Shown piece after piece: positions 12,209 through 51,991 of a stretch of 52,768 bases of DNA; within the stretch, counting starts at the first letter, position 1, and each line of letters opens with the position of its first letter. The notes below the pieces were generated by a model that was not told the origin of the DNA, made no database searches, and was given only the letters and a program-made list of their open reading frames with translations. The position numbers and the translations under genes are program-made. The DNA is from Nemertoderma westbladi (Eukaryota > Animalia > Xenacoelomorpha), in NCBI GenBank assembly GCA_032718475.1, contig JAUCBJ010005791.1, positions 1-52,768 of the forward strand, given 5' to 3'.

Positions 12209-12345
12209 ATGGATATGTTACCAGGTATATTGTTATTGTTGGGATTAACTAGTTTATCGAGAGCTCATTATTCAGGGTCTTCTAGGGATGCCTTGAATTT
12301 GGCGAAAATAGAATCGGAATTGGTAGAAATATGGAATTCTCACAG
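12209..12345 (+). CDS. P4HA: P4HA exon 1 (MDMLPGILLLLGLTSLSRA signal peptide ... ESELVEIWNSH)
   Basis: ATG at 12209, hydrophobic leader, donor AG|GTAAGG. Confidence 0.85.
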
Positions 12346-15300: not shown

Positions 15301-18300
15301 TTTCTCGGGCAGTCAGTCCAACAATCTCTGCGATTCATGTTCCTACTATCGATTACCGCCAATTGGCAGCTGACCAGGTTTCTTCCAATGAAATCGCTTC
15401 CTATCGGACAGCTATATCTGGACTCAACCTCAAAGATGTTTCTTTCGGCGATTATACCGTCCTGTGCGACATCTCTACAGGCAGCAATCGTCCCATAGTG
15501 CCAGCTTCATGGACTAAGCACATTTTCAACACAATTCACAATCTGGCACATACTGGTTGCCGCCCAACGCAACGCGCCATATCATCCAGGTTTGTTTGGC
15601 ACAAATTAAAATCTGATGTCAGAAGATGGTGCCGAGAGTGCCATCCGTGCCAGGCATCAAAAGTGCAACGTCATGTACATGCCCCACTTACACATCGGCC
15701 ACGACCCGACCAACGGTTTGCCAGTCTCCATGTTGACCTTGTGGGACCCCTTCCTGAATCAGAAGGCAATTCGTATCTGTTTACCATCATAGACCGCTTC
15801 ACTCGCTGGCCAGAGGCAATTCCTCTGCAGAACGCCACCACTGAGTCCTGTGCCCGTGCACTCATTAGGCACTGGATTGCTCGGTTTGGTGTTCCCATCG
15901 ACATTGTCTCAGATCGCGGCTCCCAATTCACTTCGCACTTGTGGTCGAAGCTACATCAACTACTAGGCATCTCTGCCTCGTCCACTACAGCCTACCACCC
16001 TCAAGCTAACGGTATTGTAGAACGGATGCACCGTCAACTTAAAGCTGCCCTAAAGGCTCGCCTCAACAACCCAAACTGGATGGATGAGTTACCCCTCGTT
16101 CTCCTCGGAATGCGGACTGCCTGGCGTGAAGACAGCGACTGCTCATCTGCCGACCTTGTTTACGGCACAGCTCTACACCTCCCAGGGGAATGTCTACAGC
16201 GCAGATCTCCTACTGACTGTCCGGATAATCTGCTACGTCTTCAAACTGCAATGCATTCCGCACTCCCTCCGCCTTTCAACTATCATGGCCAACGACATGA
16301 ACACTTTCCAAACCACTTATCATCAACTGGATTCGTTTATGTCCGAGTAGACAAACACCACGGACCCCTGGAGCGGCCCTATTCAGGTCCATTCAAAGTC
16401 TTGAAGGCGGGTGATAAATGTTTCTTACTCGACATCAATGGTAAACAAGACTCCATCTCTGTTGACAGACTCAAAGTAGCATATAAATCGCAGTTGTCAA
16501 CCACAGCTCCAAATCCACCCGCGCTAAAATCTACACCCACACCCACAAACCACTCACCGGAGCCAACCCCAGCAACATTGGAAAAAGTTTCACATTCAGG
16601 CCGTATAATAAAGCCCCCGAACTATTATGGTTTCCAGGCATCATCGCTTCAGTCAGTTCACTGCCCTCCGCTGGGGGGAGCCATGTAGCGACCCTGGAAC
16701 TAGAACGTTAGCTGATAGTTTCCCAGCTAAGGATGCTGGATATGTTGCTAGGCAACACAACAAAACAATGATTCTTATAGCTAGCTAGATCACTACACTT
16801 TGTACTGAAAGACGCGTATATGTATTAATACTTTTATTACGTATTATTTTAATGATCAAAAGATAATAATACACTAAACTTAGCTCACGCTAAAATACTT
16901 AACTATACAGTACTTTCAACTAAAAGCTGGTTTTTATGACAGCAGAGTGGATTTTATGAGTAATATTTTTTCTTCAAAACGAAAAATATAATATTTGGCA
17001 ATATTACAATAAATTATATATTGTTACATTTTGTGTTCGTCTCATTTACCTTTAGGAGACACACTCGAAAACTTTCAGCAACCCTGGACGAAGTAATTAC
17101 ACAAAGTACCGAGACTGGCGTACGGAGTGGTTTCCATAACAACCGGTAAGTAACGGGTTTTACACAATACAGTTAGTATAAATTCGTTATTTATCACTGG
17201 TACCGTAGTAATTCGCCGTCGATTTATGCACGCAATTTAAGCACTAACAATTTTTTTCAGTAAATTATCTCTAAGCGATGTCAGTAAGGATCACGAGATG
17301 GCGTTGTTATACAACGGAAGTTTGACAGACTACTGGAATCATCCAATCAGATTGTTTAAACTCGTGAGACGATTAGAAAATAAACCGTGGCCGCAGCTGC
17401 GTGCGGCTTTACAGAAACGCAGTGCTATTGGTAAGTCAACAATAATTTATTAATTTATATTATAGCCTAGGAAACACTATAAAACGCAGTTACTGTATGA
17501 GTATGAGTATGAAATTAATAAGTGAGAATTCATAATAGGCTTATATATTTTTTTTAACCTGAAAATTTTTTTCTGGTTTATAGATATTTTTGATGAATTA
17601 TCCGAATTTCACAAAAGTCATTTACCAGGATCCAAAGAGGTGGAGAAAGCCGCTTTTGTGATAATGCGAATAAATGAAGTTTACGATATACCAATAAAGC
17701 AACTAGCAGACGGGACTGTAGCTGATGAATCAGGGACTGAGAGTTTATCAGGTAAGTAGTAGGCCTACCTACGGTCGCGGTAAACGATACCTTGCTGGTT
17801 AAATCCGTTGACTTTCATTCACATCTCTCGAAAGAAAACTTTTACTGTGCTTCTAATAAGCGACTATCGGATGCGATTTTCACTTGTCAATCAGCAGGTG
17901 AGAGACTACATAACATGTACTGAAGGTGTTGTTAAGAAAAACCGAATGGGACGTGATAGGCCTACTGTAAGTAGATTAGGGAATATAAATCATTTAAAAG
18001 CAAACTAGAGTCTTTATTTTTCAGCTGATGACCTCTGAGCCTTTATTTTTCAGCTGATGACCTCTATCATGTGGCGTTGGCAGCTCAAGACAGGGAATTT
18101 TACCACAAAGAAATCCAATGGCTTAAAGAAGCACTACGCAAACAAATGATCGAAGATGAATTGGACGAAGCCACTATTGATATAAAGATACTATATGATT
18201 ATCTTCAGTACAGCTACTTACAGAACGGTCAAAATAAGGAAGGGATATATTATGCGAGTTTACTTCTAAATATCGGTAAGACAATTAATGAGTATTAATA

Positions 18301-21300
18301 TTAATAACACACAATCATTGTATATTGATATTTATTTACTGTACAGTATAACTACCGTAGATACAGTTTTACATATTTATAATAAATAAATTATGATTAT
18401 GTCTGCTATAATCTAGGCATATTTAGACCAATTTGTTTCTGGAGGTTTTGTTTTCCGTTTACATTTTAGTATTTTGCTAATAACGTTGGCAATTTTTGGT
18501 GAAATTGAAATTAAATATATAGATTACATTCCAAAATCGAAAAATAAAGCCGACTGAGGTGGCTAAGTATTGCCAAATAGACTATTTTTAATGGCTTGTT
18601 GTATTGAAATAGCTCAGAAATTGAGAAATCTGGCTTTGCTCCAGCAGTAAGAAAAATTGTCAAATTTCGTAGCATACTGAATGATTGAAATTTGAAAAAA
18701 AATAATAGGGGGGGGGGGGGGGGGGGGTCCTTGCTTAAAATGGTTGTTGTTGCATTAAGGAAGATGGTGTTTATTATTTCGGTGGATATTAATAACAAGA
18801 TTGCGGATATTAATAAAGAAACAATCGATGCCATGATATGCCGGAGCTGCTCACTGCACCGCACAGGATCACGTAGACCTATCCGGATATTCATCCGTGG
18901 CGAATTGGCTGAAGGAGCCAAGCCCCAAAATCACCACTACTACTACTACTAGGTCGAGCGAACTCGGACAGTGGAAATGAGATCCTTCCAGGCTTCCCGA
19001 TTCTTCATAGTTGTCGCAATTTCGTTTCTCCCAAGTTCAGTATCCCTTTCAAGTTGATCTATATATGTTATGGCCGGTCATCCACGACTACGCTTTCCAT
19101 GAGTTGGTTGCCAGAGAAGTAGATCTGGTATGACCTCGTCTTTACTTCGCAAGCAGTGCCCACTGAATCTTAATCTGCGTTCACGGAGGGTGGTTGATAC
19201 AGGTGGTATTGTACCATAAAGCTCGGCGTTTGTCATGTGTTGTCTCCAGCTGATGTTTAGGGCTGCCCTTAGTAGTCTTGTGTAGCAACCATCAATTCGT
19301 TGTTCAAGTGATTTAGTCAGTGTCCAGGTCTCACCCCCATATAAAAATACACTTTCCACTGTGGCTCGAAAGAACTTAGTCTTCAGGTGCCTGGAGAGCT
19401 CTGATTTCCAGATGGTATCCATTTTTGATAGAGCTACCCAAGCCTTTGCTTTCCTAACTTCTATGTCCTTTTTGCTACTCTCTATCCATGATCCAAGGTA
19501 CTGGAAGTCATCGACCTTCCTTAGTTGATTATTATCAATGGTTGTCAAGTTTCCATCAACATTAAAGGTCATGAATTCGGTCTTTGTAGCATTTATATGC
19601 AATCCAACCTCCTTAGCAGCCCTCTCCACTTTATTTAGTAGAAGCTGTGGATCTGCTAGGGTATTAGAGAGCAGGGCGATGTCATCCGCAAAGTCGGTGT
19701 CTGTGACTGTAGATGCCGGATATCTACTACTTCTGCGTTCTTGAAGTGTGAATCCCAGATCTTCACCCTTTGTGGCCGTCCTCATTGCGTACTCCAGCAC
19801 AATTACAAATAGTAATGGTGCTAATGTGTCACCTTGCAGTACGCCAGCCAGGATTGAGAAAAACTCAGTTTCACCATCTGGTGTGAGTACCTGTGCTTCT
19901 GTGTCACAATATAACAATCCAATGCCAGCAACAATTACTTCTGGTATTCCATAAGCTCTTAGGATTTCAAGCATTTTACCTCTATGGATGGAGTCGAATG
20001 CCTTCTTGAAGTCCACAAAAGTCATGACTGCGGGGAGATTCTTTGACTTAATTCCTTCAATCAGTCTCCGTAGTGCAAGTATCTGAGCTATTGTTGATCT
20101 ACTTGGTCGAAATCCGTTTTGGCTCTTACGCAGTAGTTTCTCTATGTGAGGCCTAATCCTATATAGAATCATTTTATTGTATATTTTGGCAGCTACCACA
20201 AGCAGACAGATCCCACGATAGTTTGTTGGTATGCCGAGGTCTCCTTTCTTGGGGAGAGGCTTTAGTTTACCTTTAGTCCAAATTGGTGGTGGCTTTTCCC
20301 CTTTTAACATTAACTTTCTGTTTAGCACTCCGGTTTTCCATACCTCCGCTGAGATTTCATCTAATCCACTCGCTTTATTATTGGACATGCTTTTAATGCT
20401 TCTTTGGAGATCGGCAGGTGTGAAGTCCCCTGTTTCTATAGGTAGTGTCTTGTCATATATTTTCCTTGTAGGGCTGACCTCGATGTTTGGTGGCTGCCCA
20501 AGCAAGTTGCTGAAGTGATTTTTCCACTTCCCAACACGTTCTTCAGGACTATCGGCTTTGAGGCGCCCCTTTGCACAACTTTTCCGACCAGATACCTCAT
20601 TTACAGTTTGCCAGGTATGTCTTGATTGTTGCTGTATATGAGTAGTTGTAATTGCTTCAGTTTTATCCTGTATGTACTTTTCCTAGCTGATGTTGTAGGC
20701 CAATTTAAGATCGTCCTTAGCTTTCTCAACCTTGTTAATGTTTTCGGTTGTTGGTTGTTCAGTTTTAACTTTGTAGGCTATCTTAAGATCTTCTCTCTTA
20801 CAAGTAACCTCAGAGTTTTGCCATGGCACATACTGTTTTCGTTTGGGTTTCTGGGGGATATGCCTCTTAGCTGATTCCTTGTGGGCTGTTATTATATTCT
20901 GGTATATTGAATTGGTGGATTGCTCTTCATCCATTGACTGAAGTGCTTCAAAGCGGTTTTGAACTTCTACTGTATAAGCATCCATTACAGCATTGTCAGT
21001 TCTGAGTTTCTCCCAGTCATATTTGATTTGCTTGCTTGTCCTGGGTTTGCTGGCTCTCAAACTGAGTCTGATCTCTGCAGTCACAATTCTGTGGTCCGAA
21101 CCAATTAGGTTGAACGAGCTGTATGCCTCGCAGTTGATCATGCTGTTTCTCCACTTTTTGTTTATAAGGATGTAATCCAGTTGTGCTTTGGTTCCATTAG
21201 GGTATTGAAAGGTCCATAGCTTCACCTTACTCTTTTCGAATGTGTTGTTTGTTGGTATCAATTCACATTCTTCCATTAGGTCTAAAAGTAAGTACCCATT

Positions 21301-24300
21301 TCTGTTAGAACTGGTGTTATAGGTGTAACCCTTGATGTCTTCTGGGCCAATTTGGGCATTCAGGTCACTAGCAATGACTTTAACATTGTGTTTCGGAATG
21401 TCCTTTATAAGTCCAGTTAGTTCTTCATAAAACTTGACTGCTTGTTCTTGCTCTGAGGCATTGGTTGGACTGTAGCAACATATAACTGTTGCCTTGGGAT
21501 TCCCATCAAATGTTGCGATCATAACCCTGGAATTTATAGATAGAATTTATAGCAAATGAGCTTAACAGAATTCCTACTCCACCAATTGATGCATTGGCCG
21601 AGTTTCTTACTGCTGAGCTTGTTACTAACGTCCATCCATTTCCAATGTCATTGTACTTCATGGCAGTAGTGTCTTCATGACAAATCCGATGTTCTTGGAT
21701 GCAGATGATGTCATATTACGATGTTATACTGTATTCCATTGCCAGAGCGAGCATGTCACCCTGTTTGGTATGTGCTTTCAGCGTGCGTGCGTGCGTTCAT
21801 TGTAGCAATCATTAGTGTCCTTTTACATTTCAACAGGTTGGTTCTTCTTTCTTCTCTGTCTTCTGTTCCAGTAGCCAATTTATCGACCCCAGCCTGGTGT
21901 ACCACTGAGGGACGCGGTCCTCCTTGACCCGGGCGACGACCGAGCCGGTATTTCTCCTGGAGGGTTCTCATACTCATATCTTTCAGTTGCGGGAGTAAAC
22001 CGCTTGCGGTCGCAACTCCTACAAGAGTCTTCGCAGTAGATCGCCGTTGGTTGATTACCTTCCGCCGACCTTGTCAGCATGTCTAGCCGTTGGTTGATTA
22101 CCTTCCACCTATCCTTGGCCTACAGCCCTGCTGCCGACTGTAGGGGTCCTTTTGTTACACCCTGAACCAAGTGTGCCTCCTGGGTAGGTTACCTAACACT
22201 GGTAGAGGAGCATCCAGTATAGACAGGGCGGGGCGTGTATCATCTCTAATGCACTACTAGGATCGGCATGCTGCATTGCAGCTGCATTTTTAAGAATGCT
22301 GTGCCGGCTTATCGACAAAATTGCACCGCCACAACTCGTCCCTATCACCCATGACATTTGCTAGATCATCCGCATCTTCAAGGCCAGTGTCCTTTAAGAT
22401 GCCTCTCAAGAAAGTCATGGGCTGTCCACCATGCTTATTCACTCCATGAGGCTGCCAAAGTACAAGATTATGCACTGGCTGGTCCTCACGGCGAAAGCAA
22501 TGTCCTGCAAAGCGGAGGCGATTTTGTTCTAGTGTCAAGCTTGGGGGAACCAATGAGACACCTCCAATGTTATATAGTGTCTGGTTGGAGATGTGTGCAT
22601 TGTACTTGACACAATGAACCCGGCGTAGCATTTTTGTGAATGTGCCATCCAGAGATTTGGTGTCCTCAGCAGTTAGAGCCCAGCATGGACTCCCATAGAG
22701 ACTCTAATGCAGATGCGTATCAAGCCTTTGACTTCAATGTTGCCCTAGGCGCTATAGCCCTCAATGACTTATTCAGTTGACGGGGCTAAACCAACCCACT
22801 CTTGATCAACTAAATAATGAATAGGCTATGCTTATCGGGCCTGCCCTACTGGGCTGACAGCTACAGGTAGTACCACATTACTGCCATAGTGGTAGCAGGA
22901 TCTGGGGACCTGACCTGACCTTCCATAAGTTCGCATATTTCCAATTGGGGTGTCGTTTCAGCCTATGGAAGCACGCCAGCTTTCCATACCTCTGCAGGGA
23001 TTCCTTCCACCCAACCCAAATACTTTAGTCAATATTTTTACTATTCAGATCCCAATAACGAACGGGCTGCTATCAACATTGAATTTGCCAAGAATAACCC
23101 AAATATGAAAAACTATTCCATTAGTGAACCTAGTCTTGGTCATCGTCTCTACAGACTCGGTTGCCAAGGTCACCCAGATTACTATAAACAAGTGGTTAGT
23201 AGTTTGTTACATCTTTATAAACAGCAGTATCACTAAAATATTCGTGGAATTTTGTTGTACATATCTGTCTGTATGCTTCCTATACTACTGCATCTGTCTG
23301 TATGCCTCCTATAATAGTATAGGCCCTACTACAGTATGTATAATAACATTTTATTTTATATTTATTGTGATTCAGCGATCTCTAGATTTCTAAAATAAAA
23401 TAATCATGGATGGGATCATTTTTAGCCCGGGAATAAATATATTTGCATGTTAATAAACAAAAAACAAAACTAATTTAGATACTGTAAATATATATTTAAT
23501 GTTACTATTATTAATTAACCAGCATTGCTGTAATTATTTGTTTTTTTTCTTCAAGTCTAACCGGGTTCGGAGATATCAGATATGCCGCTACAATAACAAG
23601 AATAGCAACCCAAGACTCATATTGAAGCCATTAAAAGAAGAATTAGTTCACCCAGAACCCACTCCCATAACAATATACCACGATTTACTGAATGACCGCG
23701 AGATAGAAACCATCAAAGAATTGGTAGCTAATAAAGTAAGTAAGATTGCGCGTATCGCATACAATAATACAGTAACTTTAGTTGTGAGATAAAAGTAGCG
23801 CTTTTCAGCATTCTCACCCTTTATCTTAACCCTATTAGTACCGGGCTATAAAATGTTGTACAAATACCGGGAGGGGGTCATATTGACCCCCCCCCTCTAA
23901 AATCTACAAATGTTTACGAAAATGTCTGATTTTTTGTTTGTACGTAGGTATCACTTGTCTGGATCCGACCGAAAAAAAAAATTTTCGAAAAAATGTACTG
24001 GGGTGGTTATATTGCAGCACCAAAATTACAAGTAGTGCACAATTTTCACCAAATTTGAAAGTTACATTTTCGGCTAATTATTTTTCAATACAGGTTTTCT
24101 GGGGTGTAAAATACATTGGAAAATATTAAAAAATGATATGATTACTATAAATGGCTGTTTAGTCCTCTCTGCGTAGGAAAAAAATGAAAAAAACAAGTAA
24201 CCAGCACTTTTCAGTTAGAACACAAAATTTTTAATTCACTTATACGATGCTATAAATTCACATTTTCAGGTTTTTGAGGGCGCTGATTCTAATGGAATAC

Positions 24301-27300
24301 ATTTCTAATATGCTAGATCATTGCTACTTGTATTTTTCGGCGTAATTTGGCAATTTTGGTGCTAGCACCAAATTTCGTACCCATCACCAAAAAGTACAAG
24401 TTTGCGATGTCCAGTGCAGTTTTTATTGATTCCATCGGATTCAGGACCCTCATAAACCCGTATAACGCAAGAAACAAGGTGATACTATCTACTTATCAAT
24501 TTGCATATTTTCCAAAATTTGGTGCTGGCACAACAATTTTCACCCACCGGCGAAAAATACAAGTTTGACAACTCTTATGAAATTTTTACTGATTCCATTG
24601 AATTCAGAACCATCACAAACCCGTATAACGCAAGAAACAAGGTGACACAATCAATTGATATATTTGATGGTTTTCAAAATTTGGTGCTAGCACCACATTT
24701 TGCACCCACATCCGAAAAATACAAGTTTGAGATGTCTAGTTCGATAATTATATTTTCCATTGAATTCAGAACAGCCATAAACCTCTAAAACGCAAGAAAT
24801 AAATTCTCACAAGCAATTTTATCTATTGAATGGATTTTCAAAATTTCGTGCTAGCACCAAAATTTGCACACAGCACCGAAAAATACAAGTTTGATACGCT
24901 TCGTGCAACTCGTATATATTTCTTCGAATCCAGAAACCCAAAAAACCCCAATTGCGTAAAAAACAAGTTTCAAACGATCAATTTACAAAATTGACTTATT
25001 TCAAAATTTGGTGCTGGCACCAAAATTTGGCACCCACCGAAAAAAACAAGTTTAAAATTTCTAAATCAATTTATATGAATTCCATCAAATTTCTAACACC
25101 AAAAAACCCGTGTAAATAAAAAATAGAGATGTTACAATTCATATTTAATGAAATGTAATTTTCAAAAAACGTCTCAAAAAAAGTGCCAAAAGTAGGGTTA
25201 AAAAATGGCGCTATAACTCGAAAAGTACCCAATATTTTTGAAAACGGTTTTCACTACTAGGAAGACAATAGATTTTTAGGAAAAGTCATAAAATTTCAGA
25301 TTCCCAACTGCGTTTGTTTCAGAATTATAATAAAAAAATCACGGGAGGGGTCATATTGACCCCCCCCCGGGTTTAATAAGGTTAATATTGTACCTCGGAA
25401 CGGGGAGCTCTGCTTACTACAGCTTGAGCGAAGTCCTCACAAGCGCATTAACTAAAGGTATAAACTGAAGTTCAGCATTTAATAACGAACCTGTCTTTAG
25501 ACTGGGTAGTTCTTGTCAAGAGTTGAGCCGTTCGAAAACACGATGTGTGTGTGTATGTGTGTATACAGTAACCATCCTATATCTCAAAAACTCACAGGTA
25601 CGCAACAATTTTTAATGCGACTACTGTATTTATCAATTATTATCTAGTTGTTGAAAAAAAAGTTGGGAACGATTCGATGTGCGATATTCGAAATATTAGC
25701 ATATTATCAACATTATGGAACGCGAAATTAAATACCCACAGCTACACTTTGTCAGCTGAACAACATTTCACTACTTATTGTTAATTTGAGTTGCGTACTA
25801 CATTATTATTATATTATTATTTATTATAGTTCTCTCTATTCAGTCAGTTAGTGTAATGTCAAGCAGTACATCATTTATAAATCGTATGTATAGGGCCTAA
25901 TTGTCATCGTTATAATTAATACTGTCATCAACTCAGGCTAAGCTTAATTGTAATGTAAAGGCTTAGTAGGTTTTGTATATCTGGGACGTTTACAACAGCT
26001 GTCGATTAAACTAATAAAACCAGAAAACTGAACCAGGGTGGCTGCTAGCCCAGTTACCAACGGCTGTTGGCCGTTGGGTAGACTTAAGGGAACATTTCAC
26101 AAACTTTCATAGGAGGCTTGTACACAGTGCCGGATTAATCCTCTGGTGGCCCTAAGGCACATTTTAGTAATTTCCAAAAATGGCCCGAAAATTGATCTTT
26201 TTCCGCAAACCCTTTCAAAAGAACAAGCTGCTAAAAACAACCGAAATTGTGAAAATGTTGAGAATGAAATATAAAGTATTTTCTTTAGTATATAATATTT
26301 AATAGTAATTAGTATTCAAAGCAAGGCACACTGTCGGCCGAAGCCGGAGGCGACCCGAAGGCTCCTCTTTCGATAGCTGCTACCCGAGGGTAGGGGTGGG
26401 CGCTACTCATATCCCAAGATTTGCTCCCAGTTATTTAACTGGTACTCATTTTATCGACCCCAGTGGGTGAAAGACTGAGTGGAACCTGGTGGAGCTGAAC
26501 CTACAACCAATAGATTGCATGCCCGGCGCTCAACCAAATGAGCCAAATTAATTACATTAATTAGTAGTATAATATTTCAAATAACTACTAAGTACTTTAA
26601 TAATAAGTACTTTGCAAAAATAGTTTTCATCAAGAATTGTAACATTTACTAAACGGCATATTATGCCTATAAAACCATTGCTATAAAAAGTGTAATGGTT
26701 TTGGTAGAATTTCTCACGCTTTAATTTTTAATATATTAATGGGACCATTACCCCAAATCTATTTGTTTTATTTATAAAGCTACTATTCTGAAGCTTTAAC
26801 ACAATGATCTGTGATCTTTTATATAGGCCTACTATGAAAACTGAGTATAGACAGCTTCATAAACCGTTTGTTCGAAAAATATGGCACTTTTTGAGCAGGT
26901 CGGTTTTTTTCAAAATTTGTATAAATTTTGAGGCATTTATATGTAAATTAGATCATGTTTAAGGATCTGTAATAGCACCTGCATTGAAGTTCTTGGTCCA
27001 AGACTTTGGAAAAATGGACCTAGATAAACGAAAATTTGTAAATGAAAATTTTAGCACAAAATTATTGTTTTTGAAACATTTATGGGGGTTTTAGTATGTC
27101 AGGGCTATATTTTGGGAATCAAATATTTTGTGACAGACAAAGTGTAGCAGTTATAACATCGGTTCTAGAATATCCAAATGGCCATGCTTTACAAAACCAA
27201 CGACAGTATTCCTAAAGCTGCTGAACATTTTGGTATATGTTTGATGGAAATTGAGTAAAAAATAAAATAGTAGTAGGGAATTTAGTGATGAAAAAAGTCA

Positions 27301-30300
27301 AAATCGTCAAACTGATAAAAAGGTTGTTTTATACAGAGAATCATAAATATCCGCACGTAATATATACAGTATGTTGTTGAAAAGAGCAGTTTTGAGGATA
27401 AAAAATAATTCAATGTTGAAAACCGTTATCACCTTATGAAAGCCCTTCTATCAAACTACAAAGAATTGTGTAAATTTTTGTAAATTTCGTTATAGTTGGC
27501 CCCTTTTAAGCATTTAGCAATTTTGATCGGATCGTGGGAATGTGTTATTTATTTGCTTTAGGGTAGGTTTCGCAGGGTACTTACAGTATCTTTACAGGAC
27601 TTGCTGAGAAATATAACACACCAAAAGTGTGGGATTAGTGCAAAGATATAATATTTCTGATCTATATTTGGACTTGCTGAGAAATTAATGTTCTTCTATA
27701 AGAGAACAGTCTCGGAAATGAGCTCTTTTAGTCACTAACTGTACTCCTCCTTTTAACAAAGCCGCATCCACTAACTCCCTTATTACGTATTAGCCTGTGC
27801 TGTATCAATGCCTCAGTGGGTAGTGCTGTAGTGTCTAGGCTACCGGTACGATAATCCCATGTACAGTATGCTTTCATGGCAGCATGGCATATAGCTCAGT
27901 AACTGCCAGTGAAAGAGTACCACCACGAGCACTTACAGCCCTACCCTACCATGAGCACCCTAGTGTAAGATGGGTGCGGGTCAATTTGCCCCTCAACCTT
28001 TTCGCCCCAAGTCGATTCGCCCCACATTTTACACTTTTTGGGGCATATGGACCTGGGCCGAATCGACTTGGGCAGTTGACTGATTCGCATTCGCCCCACC
28101 TCACCTTCCAAGTCCATTCGCCCCAGATGATATTATTGAATGGTTTACTAATATTCTTTTTAGGTACAATGATATTAGAAAGTGCAGAAGTACCAGATGA
28201 TTAGATGACCAGAGCACAGAGGTTCACCATCTCAATTTGTTTCACATGTAATTCATTATCTATGCTTCTAGGTCCCGCGAGTTCGAACCCTTGCCGAGCC
28301 TCAAGGTCTGTCTGGAATGTCTGTCTGTGTGTCTGTGTAATCAGCTATACAATCGAACCCATCTCGATGAAATCTCGCTTGCTATAGCTCGTTAGAAAGG
28401 TCTCATCCTAACTCGTTGCAACGTAATACTCAGAGCCGTCTGAAGTTCCCCGTGTGCCGCTAGAGGGCGAATTTCGTGATTTTCTGGCGAAATTTATCGA
28501 ATTATTTCGGCTGTTCGGTTCTTCTATCGGTAATTAATTATTTAGAGGGGTAACATTTATCCCATCTGGCAGTCTGGTAAAATTAACATGGCTAGTGCTG
28601 GCTACAGCTGGTTCATCGTCCTGGGGACTGTTCGACGACGTACTGGACTACATCTATCCCGATTCAAATTTTCGTTGCATTTCGGTATCCTTCGCGATAT
28701 GTGTTCGCTCCCAAATGCATGGGTCTGTGCAATATTTCATTGTTCTTCAAATATTTTATTAATTATAAAACTAATTCCTTATATATTATCCAATTCAAGT
28801 AGGTTTATTTCCATATTATCATGTTTATAATTGTATTATTTGAGTCAATTTTTTCTGGAGGAGTATTTAATTGACATTTAATATTTTTTTTACATCACTA
28901 CACAAATCCAACCTCCAGGGGGGGGGGGGGGGGGGATATATCACAATCACAGCCGGCGGCTATTAAGTTTCATCCACCTGACTTCCAACTGAATCCACTT
29001 AGATACACCTGAGCTGATTGGTTATTCACGGGTCAATATTCCTGTACGGAACGGCTTGTGGCAACGCACCTGCCCGAGGCCGCGTCCGCCTGCAACTTAA
29101 AGGCCTACCGGTGTAACAGGAAAATATGCCCCCCCGGGAAATGTGCTCGGGGGGGCATATTTTCCTAGGAAAAAATGCCCCCCCGGGCAAATTTCCCTAG
29201 GAAAAAATGCCCCCCTTAGGAAATTATGCCCCCCCTGAATTATACAATAAACAAAACTTATTACTACTAAAACTTACAAAAATCATACAAAACAATAAAC
29301 AGTCACTTTACCAAATGAAGGAAAGGAGCAGGTTACAGAGGCAGGCCTTTCTAACCAAAACAATACACGATCATTTAACTAAGTGAGGGAAAGGAGCAGG
29401 TTACAGAGGCGGGATTTTCTAACTAAAACAATAAACAGCCACTTTAGCAAATCAGGGAAAGTAGCAGGTTACAGAGACGGGATTTTCTAACCAAAACAAT
29501 AAACGATAACATTACCAATTGAGAGAAATGAGCAGGTTACAGAGGCGGGATTTTCTAACCAAAACAATAAACAATCACTTTACCAAATCAGGGAAAGGAG
29601 CAGGTTACAGACTTAAAAAAGCTTGGAGCTGCTCGGCGCCCACACAACACCACACACTCGCACTGCTGTTATACCAGTACTTACTACAGTAGCCTACTGA
29701 CTTAGATACTTCAGTATGCTGTTCTACATCCCTTACTGCCTTACCTGCTTACCTACCGGCAGACCGGTACCGTACTATTCTTCCAACTATATTACAAGTT
29801 CTGCAGTTGGTAGATTAAAAGTTGCTACCAGCAGACCGGTATCGTACCAGTTTTCAGACTTTTGAGGGGGGCTAATTTTCCTGAGGGGAGGCATTATTTC
29901 CTAAGGAGAAAATGCAAAATGCCCCCCCGGGCGCCCCGGTGCATTATTGCTAGTATGGCCCAATCACGGTGATACATTTTCGACTGATGCCAAGTGCCAA
30001 GACGGCAATACATTAATACTTAATAAATCCTGAACATTATTGTGTGCTGATGGCCTAATTGTTGTATCATACAGTATGTGGCATGTTAAGTGAGCTCAAA
30101 ACAAAATTATTTCCTGGCGTGCATATTCTTAACTGGCGCCGAATGTATTTTAATTTGTATGCTACATTTTTTCTGGCGCACATCAATTTATAGAGTTCAG
30201 AGTGTTGGCGCGGCGCGATTTCCAATATTACTAGGCGCGGCGCGATTTTCATAATATCTGGCGCGTTATCCGGCGCGCTTTTTGTAAGGATTCCACTAGG

Positions 30301-33300
30301 GACCGGGGGGCATATTCTAGGGGGGGCTGATTTCCTTGTGACACCGGTAATCTGGTAATACCGTACTGCAGTACTGTAATAACGTTGACGTTTGACGTTA
30401 GGTAAGGTAAGGTAGTAAGTAGTCTGGTACCGGTAGTTGAGTTCAGGCGTTACCGGTCAGCCGGTAGCCACGGAATCTGAGAGACAATGGATATATATGA
30501 AAACAGTGTCCATGGGGGAAGACAAAAACGACTCGTAATGTCTGAACCCCGAAAACCACAAAAACTTCCCAACGGGAAAAAAACACGAGGCAGAGTTAAA
30601 ATAAAAATGGAATTTATTGACAACAAACTCCGTCGCTACACAACTTTTAGTAAACGGAAAACGGGAATAATGAAGAAAGCTTACGAGCTTTCAACTCTAA
30701 CTGGAACCCAAGTGATGCTACTGGTTGCCTCGGAAACCGGACACGTTTACACGTTCGCGACACGGAAACTCCAACCGATGATAACAAGCGACGCGGGTAA
30801 GGCCTTGATACAAACTTGTCTGAACACCCCGGACCCGGAATCGGTGGACCGTCCGCTGTGCGAGGAGACGGAGTTCAGCTTCGATGGGTGTCTACGGGAG
30901 GCGCTGGAGGAGGGCAATACACGGACCCCAGTGGAGGAGAGGGATTGGCGGACCCCAATGGAGGAGAGGGTCTCCATAATAAAGAACGTGCCGGGCGCCG
31001 CCCCTGGTAGCATCGCGATGCAGATCCCCCCGGGTCTGCTGGCTAATCCTCCACACGAACAGCGCAAGGAAACTCCGGGCCCACAACTCACCTCTACCCC
31101 ACAACTCGTTCCGGTCCATCAACTCGCCCACGCCCCCCAACTCGCCCACGCCACACAACTCACCCACGCCCCCCAACTCGCCCACGCCACACAACTCGCC
31201 CACGCCCCCCAACTCGCCCACGCCCCCCAACTCACCCCGGCCCCCCAGCTAGCCCCCTCTATGCTGCAACCCGCCCCCAACCAACTCCCGGTGTTCACGA
31301 TATCCCAACCCCCCGTCCAGAAATCCCTTAAGTTGTCTCCGGACTGTAAACCACCCGCGTTGGTCGGGAACCCGTCCAGGGCACCGTCGGGCGCTGTGCC
31401 CTCCTCCCTCAAACGCCCCGCCACACCCGAGCCGTCGACCAACCGCAGACAGCCCCCGCCCCTAAAGGGCCCCTTGTCGATCCCTCTATCCCAACCCAGC
31501 GGGATGCATCCCGGGGGAATCTCTAACCCCCCTAACAAACAATCCCTCTTCCCAACAGTAATCATATCAGCCCCAACCGATATCGCTGTCTCTTCCAATT
31601 CTTCTATCAACGGTACTTTACTAGATGATTCTCCCTTTACCGACACCAGTTCATCCCCCCTGATGGACGGCACATTGCATCCGACTGCGCCACCCACCAC
31701 TGTGGCTGCCATCCAACCCACACCCAATCCCTCAATCCCATTCAGTCTCTACCAATCCCTCATCTACTCCCCACAGACTACCCCAGGATCCAGTGGGAGT
31801 GACTCGCTTATATTCGGTTACACTTTAACGCCTCACAGCGGGGCGCCGGGGAACCGCTTCTTCTCGGGTATGAGTGATGCTACTGGGGTTCTGAACACAC
31901 CCACAGTACTGCCTCGAACTAACTAACCTAACACCAACACACTACATAGTCGCACCCAATCCACAGATACACACCAATCTAACTAGACATTACTACCAAG
32001 CTATTATAAAAAATATGCATTTGATATTCGATTCAGATCAGTTGGTAAATTATGCAAACATGTGCTGAACATTGATTGTTTAACCCAAGTTTTCATTACA
32101 TTGAGTTCAACTTTAACTAGATTCACATATATGTGGCAACTTAGGCAAAACTTACTGCGATTATCTCATACACTCAGTTGTGGTTAACCAACTTCTGACT
32201 GTCCTATTGCCAATTTACTTGGTATCATTAAAACCCATCCATAGAGAAGTGATCGATTTAGAGGTACCTTAGTTACTGGATAACAGTTAATATTTCTCGA
32301 GATGTCGCACAAAAGCTGTTGCTGGCTACCTCATTAGAAGAGTCAATGTCTTTACCCCCCGAATAGATCATTGCTGTTGGAATGGGCTTATATTCTTGAT
32401 TCGGTTGGATGTTGAGAGTATTATTTTTTAGCGAAATACCTACATGGTATTGATTGACGAGTTGTGCTGACTGACACTTTTTATACAATATCTCGAGTAA
32501 TAATATCTTCCTTAGTTTGCAAGGATTTTCAATAGGAGTATCAGGAAGTTGGTCTCTAAGTTGGCACATTTTGCATTGGAAAGGTTGATTTTCGAAAATT
32601 GTTCTTACAATAGGAATATTACGTATGTTGTTTTTACTGCACTGCGTAACCCTAACTAAGTGTAAGTATAAGTGGTTCCGAATTTAAAAGTGACAACTAC
32701 CCCTTGTCTTTCATTGGGTTGTTTTAACTTTATAACACCGATAGTACTGATTTATTGAAATGTCGCAATCATTTGTGTTTCTGATTCACCAGTTATAATA
32801 TAACTCAACTGACCAAACTGTGGTTAAAAATATTTTAATTTTGCGAGCAGAGCATGTTACATAATCAGATCCAAAAGTGCACGCAGAAAAATCTGCAAAT
32901 TTATAAAAGTTTCGAGATTGCGCGGTTGATATTATATTACAGAACGCCCCACTCCTACTTGCTGCATTGACCTCCCTTTGTATCATAGCCATACACCATT
33001 GCTACAAATTCATACCACAACCCACTGTCCATGTCCTGGAATATAGTGTCTTTATTCAGGTACCACCACCCCCCCCCCCCTCCCCCTTCCCAAAATTGTT
33101 CTAAAAATTTTAATGATGGGGGCTACTTGACTTGAATAAAGACAATATTTTTCCAGACATGTTGTGAGTCAGATCATATTAACAGTAAGATACTTGAATC
33201 TCGATATTTTATGGGTATAATTATTAATTGCCACTTTTATATTTCACTTAATTAAGTAATTATAATGTAATTTGGGACTTAATTTGTTATTATCTATTAA

Positions 33301-36300
33301 ATTTGTACTTTTGTTTGTATTTGTAGAACTGTTAACTTTTGTATATCGTTACTCCACCCTGAATACTTTACCTTAAATATTTAATTATAAAAAAAACTAT
33401 TAAATAAATTGTTAAATATTAATCACAACATGTTTATATGTTTTAACATTCATGGATGGAAATATTTGGATCCCCATATACGACATAGGAACTAATTTAA
33501 CCTGTGTCTCATTCGTTGAACCAAAAAAATGTAATAAATAAAAAATTAGTAATAATGTTGTTTTTAAAAAGTGAAAAAGTATTTTGGCTGTTTTTTACGA
33601 TGTCACTTTTGCAATGTATAACCTAATGTCTCTAAAAGTGGTTCCATCTATAAAGGAATTGTAGTAGAACATAATACTGAAAATTTCGCAGGAACATGAG
33701 TAAAAACTGAGATAATGGCATTTAAAGTATTCAAACCTTCCCGCCAATTTTTCTTAAATGGAAGGAAATTTCCAACTATATTCAAAAAAAATAAGGAAGA
33801 ATACTTCTTCACTAAAATTTTCGATATGGAGGTTGTCATTGTCGGTGATTGCATTTCCGATGTCAGTTTTAACGTTTGATGAATTCCAGAATGTCTGACA
33901 GTCAGTCTGTCTGTTTATCAAACAATCTGTCTGTCTAAATTTAGGAAAGCACACGACCTCGCTGAAATTTAAGATAAAGGGGTTTTCCTGGTCAATGATT
34001 CCATTTCTGTTGTCAGCTTTGAATTATGATCGCTTATTTGTGTTGGTCTGTATACCTGTCGATCTGTTCGTCATAATATAACAGACAGACGGATAGTCCA
34101 TCTAGAATCCGTTAACTGTTAAAACAGACATAATAAACGGAATCATTTACCAGGAAAACAAACCCCTTTAACAAAATTTTCAGCTGTGTATTGCATTCAT
34201 GATTTTTGACAGACAGACACATACAGGCCAAAATACAGATAGACAGAGCGACAGACAGAAAGACATACAGGCTGATAGACATTCTAGAATCCATGAGACA
34301 TTAGAAATGAAGTCAGTAAACAGGAAAAATCCTATAGGGAAAATAGGTTACCTATGTTAAGAGATACTTAAGAGGTACTCGTACATAGAGACACTTAACT
34401 AAAAAGGTCGTGGAACCATAGAGCCTATTCTGATCTGGCACTTGAAGGTTAATCGAAGAGTTATCAATAAAGAAAGACAGACACTGGCTATTATCTTTGT
34501 AGACTTCTTTAAAACCTTCGACTCAGTCTCCCGACAACGTATGTTCAGCATACTGGCAGCATAAGGGATTCCAGAGGAAATTGTTGCAGGTATGAGATCA
34601 CCGTACGATGGTTCCACCTCGTTTGTGTCTGCTGCTGATGGTGTCACAGATACATTCGAAGTTTTATGGGGATAACTTCAGGGTGAGACATTTTTTTTCA
34701 CCATTCGCATTCCCCTACTGACACAAGAAGTAAAGGAAATCCAGCAAACTGCCTTACTGATGTCTGATCTTAAGGGCAAAGCTCTAGGGACGGCTTGCTT
34801 GAGCACGTGAATGACTTCTGCTACTTGGGATCATGGACCCGAAGGAAGGCAGGGGCAGCGTTAAATAGGCTTTCCAGGAAATGGAAGTCCCATAGAATAA
34901 AACGGAACCTTACGGTTCGATTATTTATGGCTGTAGTAGCACCAGTACTCTTATGGGAGTCCATACTGGGCTCTAACTGCAGAGGGTACCAAATCTCTTG
35001 ATGGCACTTTCACAAGAATGCTGCGCCGGGTTCATTGAGTCAAGTACAATGAACACATCTCCAATCAGACTCAATACAACATTGGAGGTGTTCCATTAGT
35101 CTCTCCTAGCTTGAGACTTGAACGAAACTGCCTCTGCCTTGGAGGACATTGCTTTCGCCGTGAGGACCAGCCAGTGCATAATCTTGTGTTTTGGTGGCCC
35201 GATGGAGTGAATAAGCGTGCTGTACAGCCCATGACTTCCTTGAGACGCATCTTAAAGGCCACTGGCCTTGAAGATGCGGATGATCTAGCAAATGTCATGG
35301 GTGATAGGGAGTTGTGGTGGCGCAATTCTGTCGACAAGCCGGCACAGCATTTTTAATATATATGTAATATATATATAATGTAGCTGCAATGCAGAATGCC
35401 GATCGTAGTAGTACTTAACTATGTTAAGAATTGCTTAAATATGTTAAGAGTTGTTTGACATAGTTGTACTGTAGAAGTGCGTTTACGACATATGTTATGT
35501 TAAGATATACTTAAAGAGATACTCCTACGTAGAGTTAAGTAATATGTTAAGAATATATGTTATAGGAATATATGTTAAGAGTTGCTTGACATAGTTTTGA
35601 ATGGGATAATCTTTTAGGCTCGTTAATCCAAGAAATGCCTGTTCACCACCATGGGTGATCTTCCACAGTAAACCCTTTCACTCTGATCATAGTTTTAGAA
35701 CTGAGTTAACTACTGTACGTTAAGAGATGCTCCTACGTCGTGTTACTTAACTTTGTTAAGAGATAGGCCTACTCCTACGTAGAGTTACTTAACCATAGAT
35801 ATACTCCTACGTAGACTTACTTAACTATGTTAATGTTTAGATGAAAGCGTCTCTATTGGCTGTACAGTCGGAACTCGCGCACGGTGGAGCTGAAGATGTA
35901 AGGAGTCGTTCTGGAAAACTGTAAGTAGAACTCAAAGTGTATGAAACAAAATTATGTATGTGTAACATGATTCATCATCTATTTATGGTTGGATGATGCC
36001 TTGCTCCCGCATCGCACTTATTATTCACGATTATAATCTATTTATAGCTACGTGATTCATCCTATTTTCATAGTGCCTTGTGATTCATTATCTATTTATA
36101 GCGCCTGGTTACATGATTCAGATGGTGATATTCTACCAGGAATTTCTCAAAGAACAGAAGATGCCTCGGAATTAGATACATCAAGAAGTGAATTATACCA
36201 GGTACCTGTAGTTCAGCTTTTCGATATTTATCTGTCGCTGATCGGGTTATACAGTATCTGTAAACACTTAGAAGTCTCGTAGTTTTGACTAATTTTTGGT

Positions 36301-39300
36301 TGTTAACTGATTTCAAAACAAATCTATCGAATTCCACAAGCCAATGTTTCAGCATTATTATAGTAGAACTGTGATGTTAGGCAGGTGAGTATCATTCAAT
36401 GTACCATAATTATTATTATATAGCGCTTCATTTCTCATATACCTCGTATATCCAACATTGTATTGTACAGTATTATACTATACGGAATGTAGGCCTACCA
36501 TCCGTTTATCATGTCACTGGAAGGACCTGATCTGCCGTGCAATGTAAAAAGACCGCAAGTCACAAAAAGTCATTTCGAGTAAAACGCAAATTACTGTTTG
36601 CCTTCAGATTGTACGTTTAAAATGTCCGTAAATTACTAATTTTTTATAACCCGACGCAATTGGGGGTGGGAAATTTTCTACGTGATTATTTCTCGCTTTC
36701 CATTAATATTTTCACTTCAGGGTTATTTTTTTGTACTTACGGTGTTTTTGCATTGAACAACCTGCATGTAAATACATTCGATACAATGCAAAAACAAATG
36801 TCACAATGACAAAACAAATGTCACAAAGACAAAACACCGTAAGTCTGTCAGTTGCGGTGTTTTTACATTGTATATATTTAATGCATATTGTGTTGGGGTG
36901 GGGGGTTGCAACCCCCCACCCCCCTGAAAAAAACTTGGGAACGGGGAAATATTATGAAATCCAAAAAACTGCCCGAAATTTGTCGAAGTTTATTAAATTA
37001 CCTGTAATATTAAGCGAAAATTAAAAAAGACTAATTAAGTTTAGTTAAATGACAGAGCAGTAGTGTTTTTTGAGTGAAAAAATTTCACTCCGAGAAAATA
37101 GCCTTGAAAGTTTAAACATTGCCACACAAAACTGCCAGTATGGGGTCTGGTTGGTTAATAATGTGAGGGTGTGGCATGAAGGAAGTACATCACAGAGCTA
37201 TAATTTTCATTATGGTGGTTTTCGAGGTCCGTGATTTCATATCCAATGCCATTTTTATGTTCGGTAGAATCTACAGTAGTCGGTTTAACTATTAATTGGT
37301 AAGCCCCTCTGACTGGACTTAACATTATGACTTTTTTTACATTTTGATCTCGCTTAAAGGAATTAAGAAGGGACTCTTTTAGTTATGGTAGGGGGGGGGG
37401 GGGGGGGTGGTTGACCTCAGGTGACTAATGGAATTATTAACAACAGTTATTACAAGCTTTTTTATTATGATATTTGCACTGCTTGTTTATTTCGTGCCCC
37501 AGGGGGCACTTTCAAAATTGCCAAAAATGTTCTCGAATATTATATTTGAGTTATATAACCGTGGTCAGCATCTAAAAAGCCGCTATATGCATGCAGCCAA
37601 TAAATTAATTTTAGTTAGCCATAAAAATTTAGCACAAAAAATACTTCAGATTGGTGCCAGAAAGGGACCACAGCACGAAAACTAACATAGCCACGTAAAT
37701 GGCGTTTGTTCTATTGGATAGCCCTTTAAATTTTAGGAAAAGTCACAATATCTCGGGGTTCCCAATAAACCCGACTCAAAGATACAGATAAATTACATAA
37801 AATTAAAAAATTTAATTATAGAGAAATGGGTCAGTGCTAAAGTATTTTACTATTATCATCATCAATGAATCAACAATACGCAATAAATAATATGAGAACA
37901 AAACTGTTACCGCTACAAGGATGTGACGTTTACTTAGTATCTTGATGCAATAATTGAAATGTCTAATGTATTTACTAGACGGCAGGTTAGCTATATGATA
38001 AAACACCGCAAGTCACTTGGTGAAATTTAAATTTAGCGCCTTTTCTGCTAATAGTAAAAAACCGCAAGTCAAAAGACACATATTTCAATAAAACCGTATG
38101 TGTGTTTTCTTATTATCTATGCAATGACAAAACACCGCAAGTCTTGTGACAAACAAGTCGGCAACGCAAGTCGGTTTTTTGCATAAATTTAAGTGACTTA
38201 CGGTCTTTTTCCTTTGTAACACTCTACATATCTTGTTGACTTACGGCCTTTCTACATTGCATATCTCGAGAACTAGAGTAGATACGGTGTTCTCGATTAT
38301 ACCATTAGATAGAGCGCATTTTTTAGACCCAGAAAAAGTGAATTTTAGAAAAAAACGACTTGCGGTCTTTTTACATTGTACGGCAGTGATGGCCTTGCAG
38401 TTCTGTCGTGGTGTAATGGTTGCTTGGAATTCACATATCTCCTGAGGTCGTGGGTTCGATCCGTGCATGGGGGTCAGGGTAGGGCACGAATACTTTATTA
38501 TTTAAAGGGATCTTCTACTTTATCCTTAATAATGAGTACCGGAAGTACAGTTATTTTTACCTTTTACATCTCCTCAGTCTCACTAAGAGAGCATACAGTA
38601 GTTGTATTTATATAACCAGCACTTCTATCTCCATCTGGTACTTCCAATTGTTACTTTAGGTCCTTGATTATGGTATCGGAGGCCACTACGAACTCCATTG
38701 GGACTTCTACTTGGAAGGTGAAGGCTTGGGAGCCGCTTACGATATTTGGGGAAATCGATTAGCAACATTTCTTTTCTATGTGAGTTTAAACTATTAGCTA
38801 ACTTTATTCAATTTAGAGATAATGTTTAGCCAACAAGTAACCGTAAGTTGATTTTTGCTGTTCTGAGATAGTCGATAAAAAATAAAAATGGGGTTTTGAT
38901 TTGCTTTTGGGTTTGCGTTGATTTGCTTAGCATTGCTATATACCCGTACCAAGTAATAAAGTTAATGGGTTTTTATTATTCGTTTATTCAATAGTTCCAA
39001 AATGAATGGTTGAGAACATAGGGATTCTGGTGTAGATGGAAGTTTTGACGCTCAAAACCGTGACAACCATAGGCTATAACCTGTTCTTTTAACTACAGTA
39101 CTGTAGGACCCCTTTCGTTCTGGGAAAGGGTTGCGGACACCATTTGTCGTGGGTTAAGGACCCATCTACTCGGCTACAGGGGTATAAGGCCTGACCATGC
39201 AGATGGTAATCTATCCATGGCTGCCTGGTCAGGAGTAGAGTAGAGTGATATTATCTACAATTTGAGTGCACTCCACTGCGACCTGCCAGCATTTTTCAGC

Positions 39301-42300
39301 AGATGAGCTGAGCTATGACCCACCAATAATGATGTGTCATGGTGTCATGTGTTTCAGAGTAGGTATGGGTGGGTGATGGGCCCAATATCTGACTCAATCC
39401 ACCCTGATGAATGGCAAACAAGGGTGCGGTATTTTCCCTCAACCACCACTATGGATTACATTAGCAATGCGGAGATCCGGCTAGCTGTTGGCAAGCTGCA
39501 TTTTTCGAGGTGTTTTGTTATTATACATTTATGATAGGAAGGGATCTAGGGGTCTTAACCTCGAATGATAAGTTTATTTTACCGAAAATAACTTATCTTT
39601 TATTGGTGCAATTGTAGGACTAATCCCATCACATGCGTACTTTTTAACCGGGTAGTGTACAAATTTAAGAATCGCGTATTTTTTCTTGAAATTAATATCT
39701 CATATCTCTCCAAACCACGTACGCGTTTCGACCTTACTGAGTCTCATCAGCGTGGAGTCGGATTCGAACCTGGGACCTCGAGGTAGAAGCCGAGACTACA
39801 ACCACTAGGCCACAGGTTCTTGAGATATGGAGTATTAATTTCAAAGCCAGCTGCCATTTTTATTAGCCCCTGATTTTTTATTATTGATAGTAACAATGTG
39901 TTGGCAAGCTGCATTTTTCGAGGTGTTTTGTTATTATACATTTATCTAGGTTATTTCCTGACCTGCTGCCTGTCTTACCCCGAAATGGAGAGAGAGCGGC
40001 CAACAATAATGTGAGACCCCGTTCCTAAAGACCTTTCTGGCCCAAACCCTGAGTCACTTGAGAGGCACGATTGCGAGGGGGGGGGGGGATTCTAGAATTG
40101 GAGGCTACTCTCATGTTCCACCCCGACCAACCAAGCCTCCATTGGCGAATCTGAGGCAAAGTCACGAGACTATTCTCAGTTAACACCCTAAGACTCGGGT
40201 CCCCAATGCGACAAGGCGAAAGCTTACTGCCCTGACAAATAATTAATTACAGAATCCTGTATTACAGTACAGTAATAAGACATGATGAATTAAGGCACAT
40301 TCGTGTGGGTCCTTTGTGCAGTACGAGACTAAATACGTACCAAATTTGGTTTAATTTTCATCAATGGTTGACTGACCTATTTTGGTTTTTATCAAAAGTC
40401 TGAATCTACTGGTACCGACAGACTGATTTTTTACCAAACATCAGAATCTTTGTAAACCTTTGACGGACTACGTATATACGTAGTTACGTACCAAGTTTGT
40501 CTTAATTTCATCAAGTAATGACTGAGTTATTAATATAGCGATCAAAATGAATTTACGACGACGACCACATCATACTGTACAACTAGTTAATGGTACCCCT
40601 ATGCTAAGGCATCGCTCACCCTATATGATTGGACATAGACTGTTGTCAACGACGTTTGACTGTTGTCGTCAGGCGTTTGACGGTTGTCACCGACGCTGTA
40701 TTCCTGATTAACATATCAGGTTTTTGTAAAGCATACTGTGACAATGTACATATTACTTAATTACATAGATGAATGATGTGAAGGCGGGAGGAGCAACCGT
40801 ATTTCCGAAGTTAGGAATCCGAAGTATTCCGAGGAAAGGGTCAGCGATACTCTGGTACAACTTACTACGTAACGGAGAAAGAGATTACCAGACAATGCAT
40901 GGTGGATGTCCTGTATTACTGGGGACTAAATGGGGTTAGTAACAGAGAAAGAGATTACCAGACAATGCATGGTGGATGTCCTGTATTACTGGGGACTAAA
41001 TGGGGTTAGTAACAGAGAAAGAGATTACCAGACAATGCATGGTGGATGTCCTGTATTACTGGGGACTAAATGGGGTTAGTAACATAGAAAGAGATTACCA
41101 GACAATGCATGGTGGATGTCCTGTATTACTGGGGACTAAATGGGGTTAGTAACAGAGAAAGAGATTACCAGACAATGCATGGTGGATGTCCTGTATTACT
41201 GGGGACTAAATGGGGTTAGTAACAGAGAAAGAGATTACCAGACAATGCATGGTGGATGTCCTGTATTACTGGGGACTAAATGGGGTTAGTAACAGAGAAA
41301 GAGATTACCAGACAATGCATGGTGGATGTCCTGTATTACTGGGGACTAAATGGGGTTAGTAACATAGAAAGAGATTACCAGACAATGCATGGTGGATGTC
41401 CTGTATTACTGGGGACTAAATGGGGTTAGTAACAGAGAAAGAGATTACCAGACAATGCATGGTGGATGTCCTGTATTACTGGGGACTAAATGGGGTTAGT
41501 AACAGAGAAAGAGATTACCAGACAATGCATGGTGGATGTCCTGTATTACTGGGGACTAAATGGGGTTAGTAACAGAGAAAGAGATTACCAGACAATGCAT
41601 GGTGGATGTCCTGTATTACTGGGGACTAAATGGGGTTAGTAACATAGAAAGAGATTACCAGACAATGCATGGTGGATGTCCTGTATTACTGGGGACTAAA
41701 TGGGGTTAGTAACATAGAAAGAGATTACCAGACAATGCATGGTGGATGTCCTGTATTACTGGGGACTAAATGGGGTTAGTAACATAGAAAGAGATTACCA
41801 GACAATGCATGGTGGATGTCCTGTATTACTGGGGACTAAATGGGGTTAGTAACAGAGAAAGAGATTACCAGACAATGCATGGTGGATGTCCTGTATTACT
41901 GGGGACTAAATGGGGTTAGTAACATAGAAAGAGATTACCAGACAATGCATGGTGGATGTCCTGTATTACTGGGGACTAAATGGGGTTAGTAACATAGAAA
42001 GAGATTACCAGACAATGCATGGTGGATGTCCTGTATTACTGGGGACTAAATGGGGTTAGTAACATAGAAAGAGATTACCAGACAATGCATGGTGGATGTC
42101 CTGTATTACTGGGGACTAAATGGGGTTAGTAACATAGAAAGAGATTACCAGACAATGCATGGTGGATGTCCTGTATTACTGGGGACTAAATGGGGTTAGT
42201 AACATAGAAAGAGATTACCAGACAATGCATGGTGGATGTCCTGTATTACTGGGGACTAAATGGGGTTAGTAACATAGAAAGAGATTACCAGACAATGCAT

Positions 42301-51414: not shown

Positions 51415-51991
51415 CTACTATTACTACTACTAGGTCGAGCGAACTCGGACAGTGGAAATGAGATCCTTCCAGGCTTCCTGATTCTCCATAGTTGTCGCAA
51501 TTTCGTTTCTCCCAAGTTCAGTATCCCTTTCAAGTTGATCTATATATGTTATGGCCGGTCGTCCACGACTACGCTTTCCGTGAGTTGGTTGCCAGAGAAT
51601 GTAGATCTGGTATGACCTCGTCTTTACTTCGCCAGCAGTGCCCACTGAATCCTAATCTGCGTTCACGGAGGGTGGTTGATACAGGCGGTATTGTACCATA
51701 AAGCTCGGCGTTTGTCATGTGTTGTCTCCAGCTGATGTTTAGGGCTGCCCTTAGTAGTCTTGTGTAGCAACCATCAATTCGTTGTTCAAGTGATTTAGTC
51801 AGTGTCCAGGTCTCACCCCCGTATAAAAATACACTTTCCACTGTCGCTCGAAAGAACTTGGTCTTCAGGTGCCTGGAGAGATCTGATTTCCAGATGGTAT
51901 CCATTTTTGATAGAGCTACCCAAGCCTTTGCTTTCCTAATTTCTATGTCCTTTTTGCTACTCTCTATCCTTGATCCAAGGTACTGGAAGTC
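51415..51991 (-). mobile_element. 5'-truncated copy of the RTE LINE at 18936
   Basis: Highly similar to about 18940-19508, with the same (TAG)n tail. Confidence 0.95.

Follow-up and report, generated by a model that had tools for sequence, protein, structure and literature searches.

An intronless SRF gene, a candidate retrogene, on the same strand within an intron of P4HA in Nemertoderma westbladi

We analysed a stretch of 52,768 nucleotides of Nemertoderma westbladi DNA (here called the window). It contains a P4HA gene of 12 coding exons and, on the same strand within its longest intron, a single open reading frame (ORF) for SRF (Table 1). The joined P4HA exons encode 558 aa with a single terminal stop, and 11 of 11 introns have GT-AG borders. 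The protein scores 374 bits over positions 7-548 of a profile made from 14 relatives and has the N-terminal domain, the peptide-binding region and a catalytic domain with HxD...H and Lys. Like P4HA2 (PDB 7zsc), it is a full-length, collinear protein; its HxD, distal His and Lys align to those of chain 7zsc_A, and the product of exon 7 matches residues 33-84 of the same chain. It differs from P4HA2 in being divergent (identity with its full-length relatives is at most 37%, and in a tree it forms a long branch whose placement has no support) and in a gene that hosts SRF together with an RTE-like and a Gypsy-type element and has one of its splice donors overlain by a 70-bp array.

In tblastn searches with five relatives, each detectable P4HA exon was found once and in order, save for the copies of the end of exon 11 in the 70-bp array. 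Exon 8, which has an in-frame ATG at its very start, has diverged beyond the reach of tblastn; it was the best of three candidate exons by profile and splice score, and the alternatives to it within intron 7 were rejected on these scores. Because the exons are collinear, in phase and present once, SRF lies inside the phase-0, 12,105-nt intron 7 of one P4HA gene. The original prediction, made from the sequence alone, had placed SRF on the same strand in a 12-kb intron 7, and the 12-exon map agrees with it in each of these respects. The prediction had also named two separate P4HA genes as a possible source of error; we rejected this, since each detectable exon, apart from the 70-bp array, occurs once and in collinear order. 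No contig of the sequencing runs joins a P4HA exon to SRF or exon 7 to exon 8, and the long-range nesting rests on the assembly of the window. Exon joints over intron 7 were not seen among the joints listed (15 of 1356) for the repeat-swamped region 22900-40860. One run (X2, see below) has some cover in the bin with exon 10, which may come from the exon or from a repeat.

Table 1. Positions of the genes and of the element next to SRF in the window
Feature	Position	Strand	Remarks
P4HA exons 1-7, region	12209..23735	+	Signal-peptide-like beginning, then the N-terminal and peptide-binding regions and the first part of the catalytic domain
P4HA coding exons 1-7	12209-12345, 17056-17145, 17261-17430, 17584-17751, 18054-18275, 23049-23194, 23556-23735	+	
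P4HA intron 7	23736..35840	+	12,105 nt, phase 0, GT-AG; contains SRF and several repeats
Non-autonomous DNA transposon	29106..30349		Terminal inverted repeats (TIR), TA on both sides, high copy in DNA runs
Likely SRF 5' UTR	30365..30486	+	No upstream ATG; X2 contig starts at about 30365
SRF ORF	30487..31926	+	479 codons and stop, uninterrupted (translation)
Likely SRF 3' UTR	31927..33430	+	AATAAA at 33135 and 33403, a third at 33533; X2 contigs
P4HA exons 8-12, region	35841..42757	+	HxD in exon 10; distal His and Lys in exon 11
P4HA coding exons 8-12	35841-35920, 36102-36201, 38660-38779, 40769-40934, 42660-42757	+	

The nested ORF is intact over its 479 aa and has the conserved MADS region that had been predicted for it. 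The encoded protein consists of an N-terminus of 29 aa, an SRF core (aa 30-116) and a tail of 363 aa. The core is identical to human SRF (PDB 1k6o, 1hbx) at 83 of 87 residues (E 7e-50), and Pfam SRF-TF (PF00319) matches the ORF above its cut-off (E 1e-20). A MADS box with the SRF-type C-terminal extension is present, and the similarity scores (SRF, 173.6 bits; MCM1, 111; MEF2, at most 37) put the protein nearer to SRF/MCM1 than to MEF2, as an SRF-type MADS-box protein. Of 249 homologues tried, 239 could be aligned on the core, and the nearest one differs at only 2 of the 87 positions. The N-terminus is short compared with the median of 98 aa; one of 30 aa or less is found in 15 of the 239 homologues, some of which may be partial. 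The tail is rich in Pro, Ser and Thr and of low complexity, with tandem repeats of 27 nt and 18 nt (QLAHAP-type). It has no match in 120 other SRFs (best E 0.07), and the 150 matches listed from a search of 1.84 billion representatives are all anchored on the core, with no homology to the tail among them; the top database matches of the nested SRF are set by the invariant core. Thus, the likeness to human SRF and to the arthropod blistered/SRF homologues is that of the core, while the short N-terminus, the unrelated tail and the unsplit coding region differ from human SRF, a gene of seven exons (PMC9185982, in the text available; PMC7203814 has seven in one of its legends but eight in the discussion section, and the available part of PMC5167519 adds nothing on SRF gene structure). 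Judged by the identity of its core, the nested protein would dimerise on CArG boxes and may recruit MRTF/TCF cofactors like other SRFs, with its tail acting differently. The tail-coding stretch 30835-31570 is GC-rich with a strong C-skew, and GC3 is 0.71-0.73 over aa 117-360 against 0.38 in P4HA.

We compared four runs from three samples at the SRF gene, one sample possibly being the source of the window. X1, X3 and X4 are DNA runs; X2 is labelled 'DNA?', and we infer from its cover that it is RNA. It is one run, and the depth of its contigs is a poor measure of expression. The X2 contigs cover 30371-31152, 31132-31192, 31210-31288, 31259-31352, 31414-33058 and 33069-33430, the last ending 27 nt past the AATAAA at 33403. 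Beyond this point, the X2 cover is low to about 33630 and zero in 33635-33740, where X1, X3 and X4 continue. No splice joint of X2 was found over 30300-33740; the two joints there are in DNA runs only. The 19 loose letters at the 5' end of the X2 contig match a 13-nt insertion allele that is also present in the DNA runs X1 and X4. The contig is therefore genomic back to about 30365, with neither a leader nor an upstream exon, and a trans-spliced leader or upstream exon was rejected as an explanation of these letters. Before the SRF ATG, the best acceptor-like site scores 0.1, compared with 8.7-13.2 for the true sites; these are in-sample and thus inflated scores from a splice matrix trained on 11 sites, and leave-one-out acceptors score -1.2 to 6.8. 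A fusion of P4HA exon 7 to SRF is therefore unlikely, and we rejected it. SRF is likely transcribed on its own, as a unit some 3.1 kb long (about 30365-33430) that is unspliced and independent of P4HA splicing. The RNA-like cover of X2, a run labelled 'DNA?', speaks against the possibility that the ORF is not expressed, which had been raised along with the original prediction. The AATAAA sites at 33135 and 33403 are where they had been reported and are probably used by SRF. Around the 5' region CpG is not depleted (CpG o/e 1.1-1.25 at 30000-31000). There is no CArG box within 4 kb upstream of SRF, the nearest being at 26174, and hence no sign of simple SRF autoregulation. Just past the SRF unit, record 21 of X3 joins 33643 to 33952, and the 308-nt stretch 33644-33951 is missing in that haplotype.

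Set against the window, the ORF of the X4 haplotype shows 6 differences (three synonymous, three not) and no indel in 1368 covered coding nucleotides, compared with 26 differences (25 of them listed by place) and three insertions in 1119 nt of the 3' UTR. The 18-nt repeat stretch 31157-31223 is outside the two long contigs of this haplotype. The ORF is thus about five times less divergent than the 3' UTR (Fisher P 4e-5). The deficit of nonsynonymous changes within the ORF, where three of the six differences change a residue, is not significant by itself (P 0.17). The nested SRF gene is real and probably functional.

In animal SRFs, the MADS box is generally interrupted by a conserved intron. 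Isoform labels, which are indirect support for multi-exon SRF genes, are carried by about 30 of the 120 homologue rows listed, all of them arthropod. The coding region of the nested gene has no introns, being a single ORF with no X2 joint across it. X2 also contains a second SRF-like contig (record 10; 2745 nt, depth 61.7), which aligns to 30580-30814 without gaps and with 45 differences in 235 nt; in the MADS box, 81% of the nucleotides are identical. Over most of 30580-30814, X1, X3 and X4 have only the depth of the main contig, save for a small extra in X1, and the second sequence was not seen uninterrupted in these three DNA runs. This is expected if the second gene is split by introns. 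Redrawn codons would give 52-57 differences, so that with 45 the second SRF is near synonymous saturation and is indistinguishable from the SRF of another animal. It is likely the intron-bearing parent in the same animal; foreign RNA would give the same pattern.

The original prediction left open whether the gene is a retrogene or has lost all its introns. Both the unspliced, RNA-like cover and the absence of the second SRF-like sequence in uninterrupted form from the DNA runs support this choice of origins and favour a retrogene over intron loss. We therefore consider it reasonably probable that the nested gene is an old, functional SRF retrogene. The mRNA of an intron-bearing SRF would have been retroposed into intron 7 of P4HA on the same strand, and the copy would have gained its own promoter and be transcribed as an unspliced mRNA. 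There is no genomic A-tract after the SRF AATAAA sites and no convincing target-site duplication around the gene, where one 8-nt match was found. Scars of retroposition decay in old copies.

The main rival to the retrogene reading is that the nested gene is the sole SRF of the animal, either retroposed in place of a parent that was lost or stripped of its introns earlier, and that the second sequence in X2 is foreign RNA from a symbiont, food or cross-contamination. This agrees with a second sequence that is near saturation and absent in uninterrupted form from three of three DNA runs, and with an almost invariant core, as expected of the main copy; there are known examples of parent genes replaced by their retrogenes, with 25 human cases cited in the available text of PMC7290577. 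On the other hand, introns account equally well for that absence, a 2745-nt contig at depth 61.7 would require much foreign RNA, and the N-terminus of the nested protein, which at 29 aa is shorter than the median of 98, looks derived. On balance, we regard a sole, replacing copy as unlikely, if worth serious attention. A DNA-level route, in which a transposon or a segmental duplication carried an already intronless SRF, might be suggested by the mobile DNA that is abundant in intron 7, by the TIR element that abuts the 5' end of SRF (ending about 15 nt before the apparent transcript start) and by the lack of retroposition scars. However, both ends of this element lie upstream of SRF, so that it does not enclose the gene, which is why we rejected a capture of SRF inside it, and in the DNA runs SRF is at single-copy depth with no uninterrupted second copy; such a route is very improbable. 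Hardly credible at all is an artefact, be it a misassembly caused by repeats or a transcribed pseudogene. It could appeal to the want of a run contig from exon 7 to exon 8 and to a low-complexity tail without homologues, but the P4HA exons are collinear, single and in phase over intron 7, and the four runs show an unbroken SRF ORF wherever they cover it, an ORF that is less variable than its UTR.

Whether the retrogene acts on its host is a separate matter. The original prediction held that the SRF polyadenylation signals could end P4HA transcripts before the catalytic exons. The signals are real, but they are not special: AATAAA is no denser in intron 7 (1.57/kb) than in intron 9 (1.63/kb), and upstream of SRF it occurs 11 times. 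By analogy with known cases, some interference of SRF with P4HA is plausible. Full-length P4HA mRNA would then be made by splicing across SRF, chiefly at times or in places of lower SRF activity. Truncation of the host, if it occurs, would be a by-product of transcriptional interference and not a selected switch. A selected switch would have SRF transcription or polyadenylation end P4HA after exon 7, and/or have donors in the SRF 5' UTR splice to exon 8. Several features can be read this way. Exon 7 read into the intron gives 371 residues plus 18 from the intron before a stop, or a product of roughly 389 aa without the catalytic residues. The 12.1-kb intron 7 contains only three strong donor-like sites (30402, 30407 and 30797), all within the SRF unit, and two of them, 30402 and 30407, are AG|GTAAGG in the 5' UTR, where about 0.03 would be expected in 122 nt (noticed post hoc). 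With the ATG at the start of exon 8, a 187-aa P4HA driven by the SRF promoter is possible on paper, as read from the sequence; and interference has been demonstrated for mouse H13/Mcts2 (PMC13309782, in the text available). Against a switch, the X2 contig crosses all three donors unbroken, AATAAA is not enriched in intron 7, X2 has no joint in 30300-33740, no truncated or chimeric transcript was observed, and the product of exons 8-12 would be missing the portion of the crystallised catalytic construct that exon 7 encodes. We therefore hold a selected switch to be improbable. The 5' UTR donors may be U1 sites that help an mRNA without introns, or may permit rare splicing to exon 8. In a bolder version, the main SRF role has passed to the retrocopy with its newly built 363-aa tail; firing of its transposon-flanked promoter would cut full-length P4HA after exon 7 and, by way of the 5' UTR donors, might start a P4HA at exon 8 that lacks the signal peptide. 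This is similarly doubtful; if true, collagen hydroxylation would at one locus be under the direct control of a transcription factor that responds to actin.

Same-strand intronless nesting and interference of retrogenes with their hosts are already known phenomena. The original prediction stressed that nested genes are more often antisense to their hosts. This holds in Drosophila melanogaster, where 71.3% are on the opposite strand, but intronless genes make up 71.5% of the same-strand ones (PMC5174743, in the part available), and the present arrangement is less odd than had been implied. In mammals, a slight orientation bias of nested genes is reported (bioRxiv 10.1101/2023.05.02.539096, available text). 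Like the same-strand nested intronless genes of Drosophila, SRF is a short intronless gene in the longest intron of its host. Those genes are typically short young duplicates and often tissue-specific (PMC5174743), whereas here we have an old-looking core transcription factor with a near-invariant DNA-binding core. The mouse H13/Mcts2 locus, where a retrogene in an intron gives rise to intronic polyadenylation of the host, is similar in that an intronless, probably retroposed coding gene has its own start in a host intron, and the 5' region here is not CpG-depleted. In the available text of PMC13309782, transcription of the nested retrogene drives termination of the host even with the intronic poly(A) signal removed, and interference makes the host end upstream instead of at the poly(A) site of the nested gene. 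The present case differs in being from an invertebrate, with no sign of imprinting and no observed truncation of the host. In human, too, shortened host isoforms with retrocopies nearby have been reported (PMC7290577, available text). What sets this case apart is the gene that is nested: it encodes a core transcription factor whose DNA-binding core is near-invariant and whose N-terminus is short and tail unrelated. In a literature search mostly outside subscription journals, no listed paper described an SRF retrogene or an SRF nested in P4HA. Muscle and actin genes have SRF as one of their core regulators. An intronless second SRF with a different tail, if expressed and constrained, would be a clean case of RNA-mediated duplication of a core transcription factor. 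It would then matter for SRF orthologue assignment and for SRF knockdown in the animal; the general lesson is small unless coupling to P4HA is shown.

The P4HA introns contain several mobile elements. A full-length Gypsy-type LTR retrotransposon (12480-16896; family named from translation) lies in intron 1 on the gene's own strand. Its two LTRs (TGTAGCG...) are nearly identical, it has gag- and pol-like frames, and it looks recent. Intron 5 contains an antisense RTE-like non-LTR retrotransposon (18931-22230), with a 5'-truncated copy at about 51430-52000. About 90 nt past the exon 7 donor is a piggyBac-like element (23826-25387) with TTAA on both sides, inverted ends and internal 163-bp repeats, which has a very high copy number in the DNA runs. 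No Rfam family was found in 23700-40800. Upstream of P4HA, nested inverted-repeat elements with long arms (899-5440) surround a Glu-rich open frame of 417 codons (3012-4265). Tandem repeats touch the P4HA exons at two places. A 29-bp duplication (18008-18065) doubles the acceptor of exon 5, and the 70-bp array (40869-42567; 24.3 copies, 99% alike) begins inside exon 11, so that every unit encodes the distal catalytic His and Lys and also contains the splice donor, which is present in 23 exact copies. The later donors of this array meet a stop at once, so that only the first donor works. Just past the 3' end of P4HA is a 53-bp satellite (43739-49210; 103 copies, 98% alike). The motif TAGGCCTA, which may be echinoderm-like, is enriched, with 11 occurrences compared with 0.7 expected.
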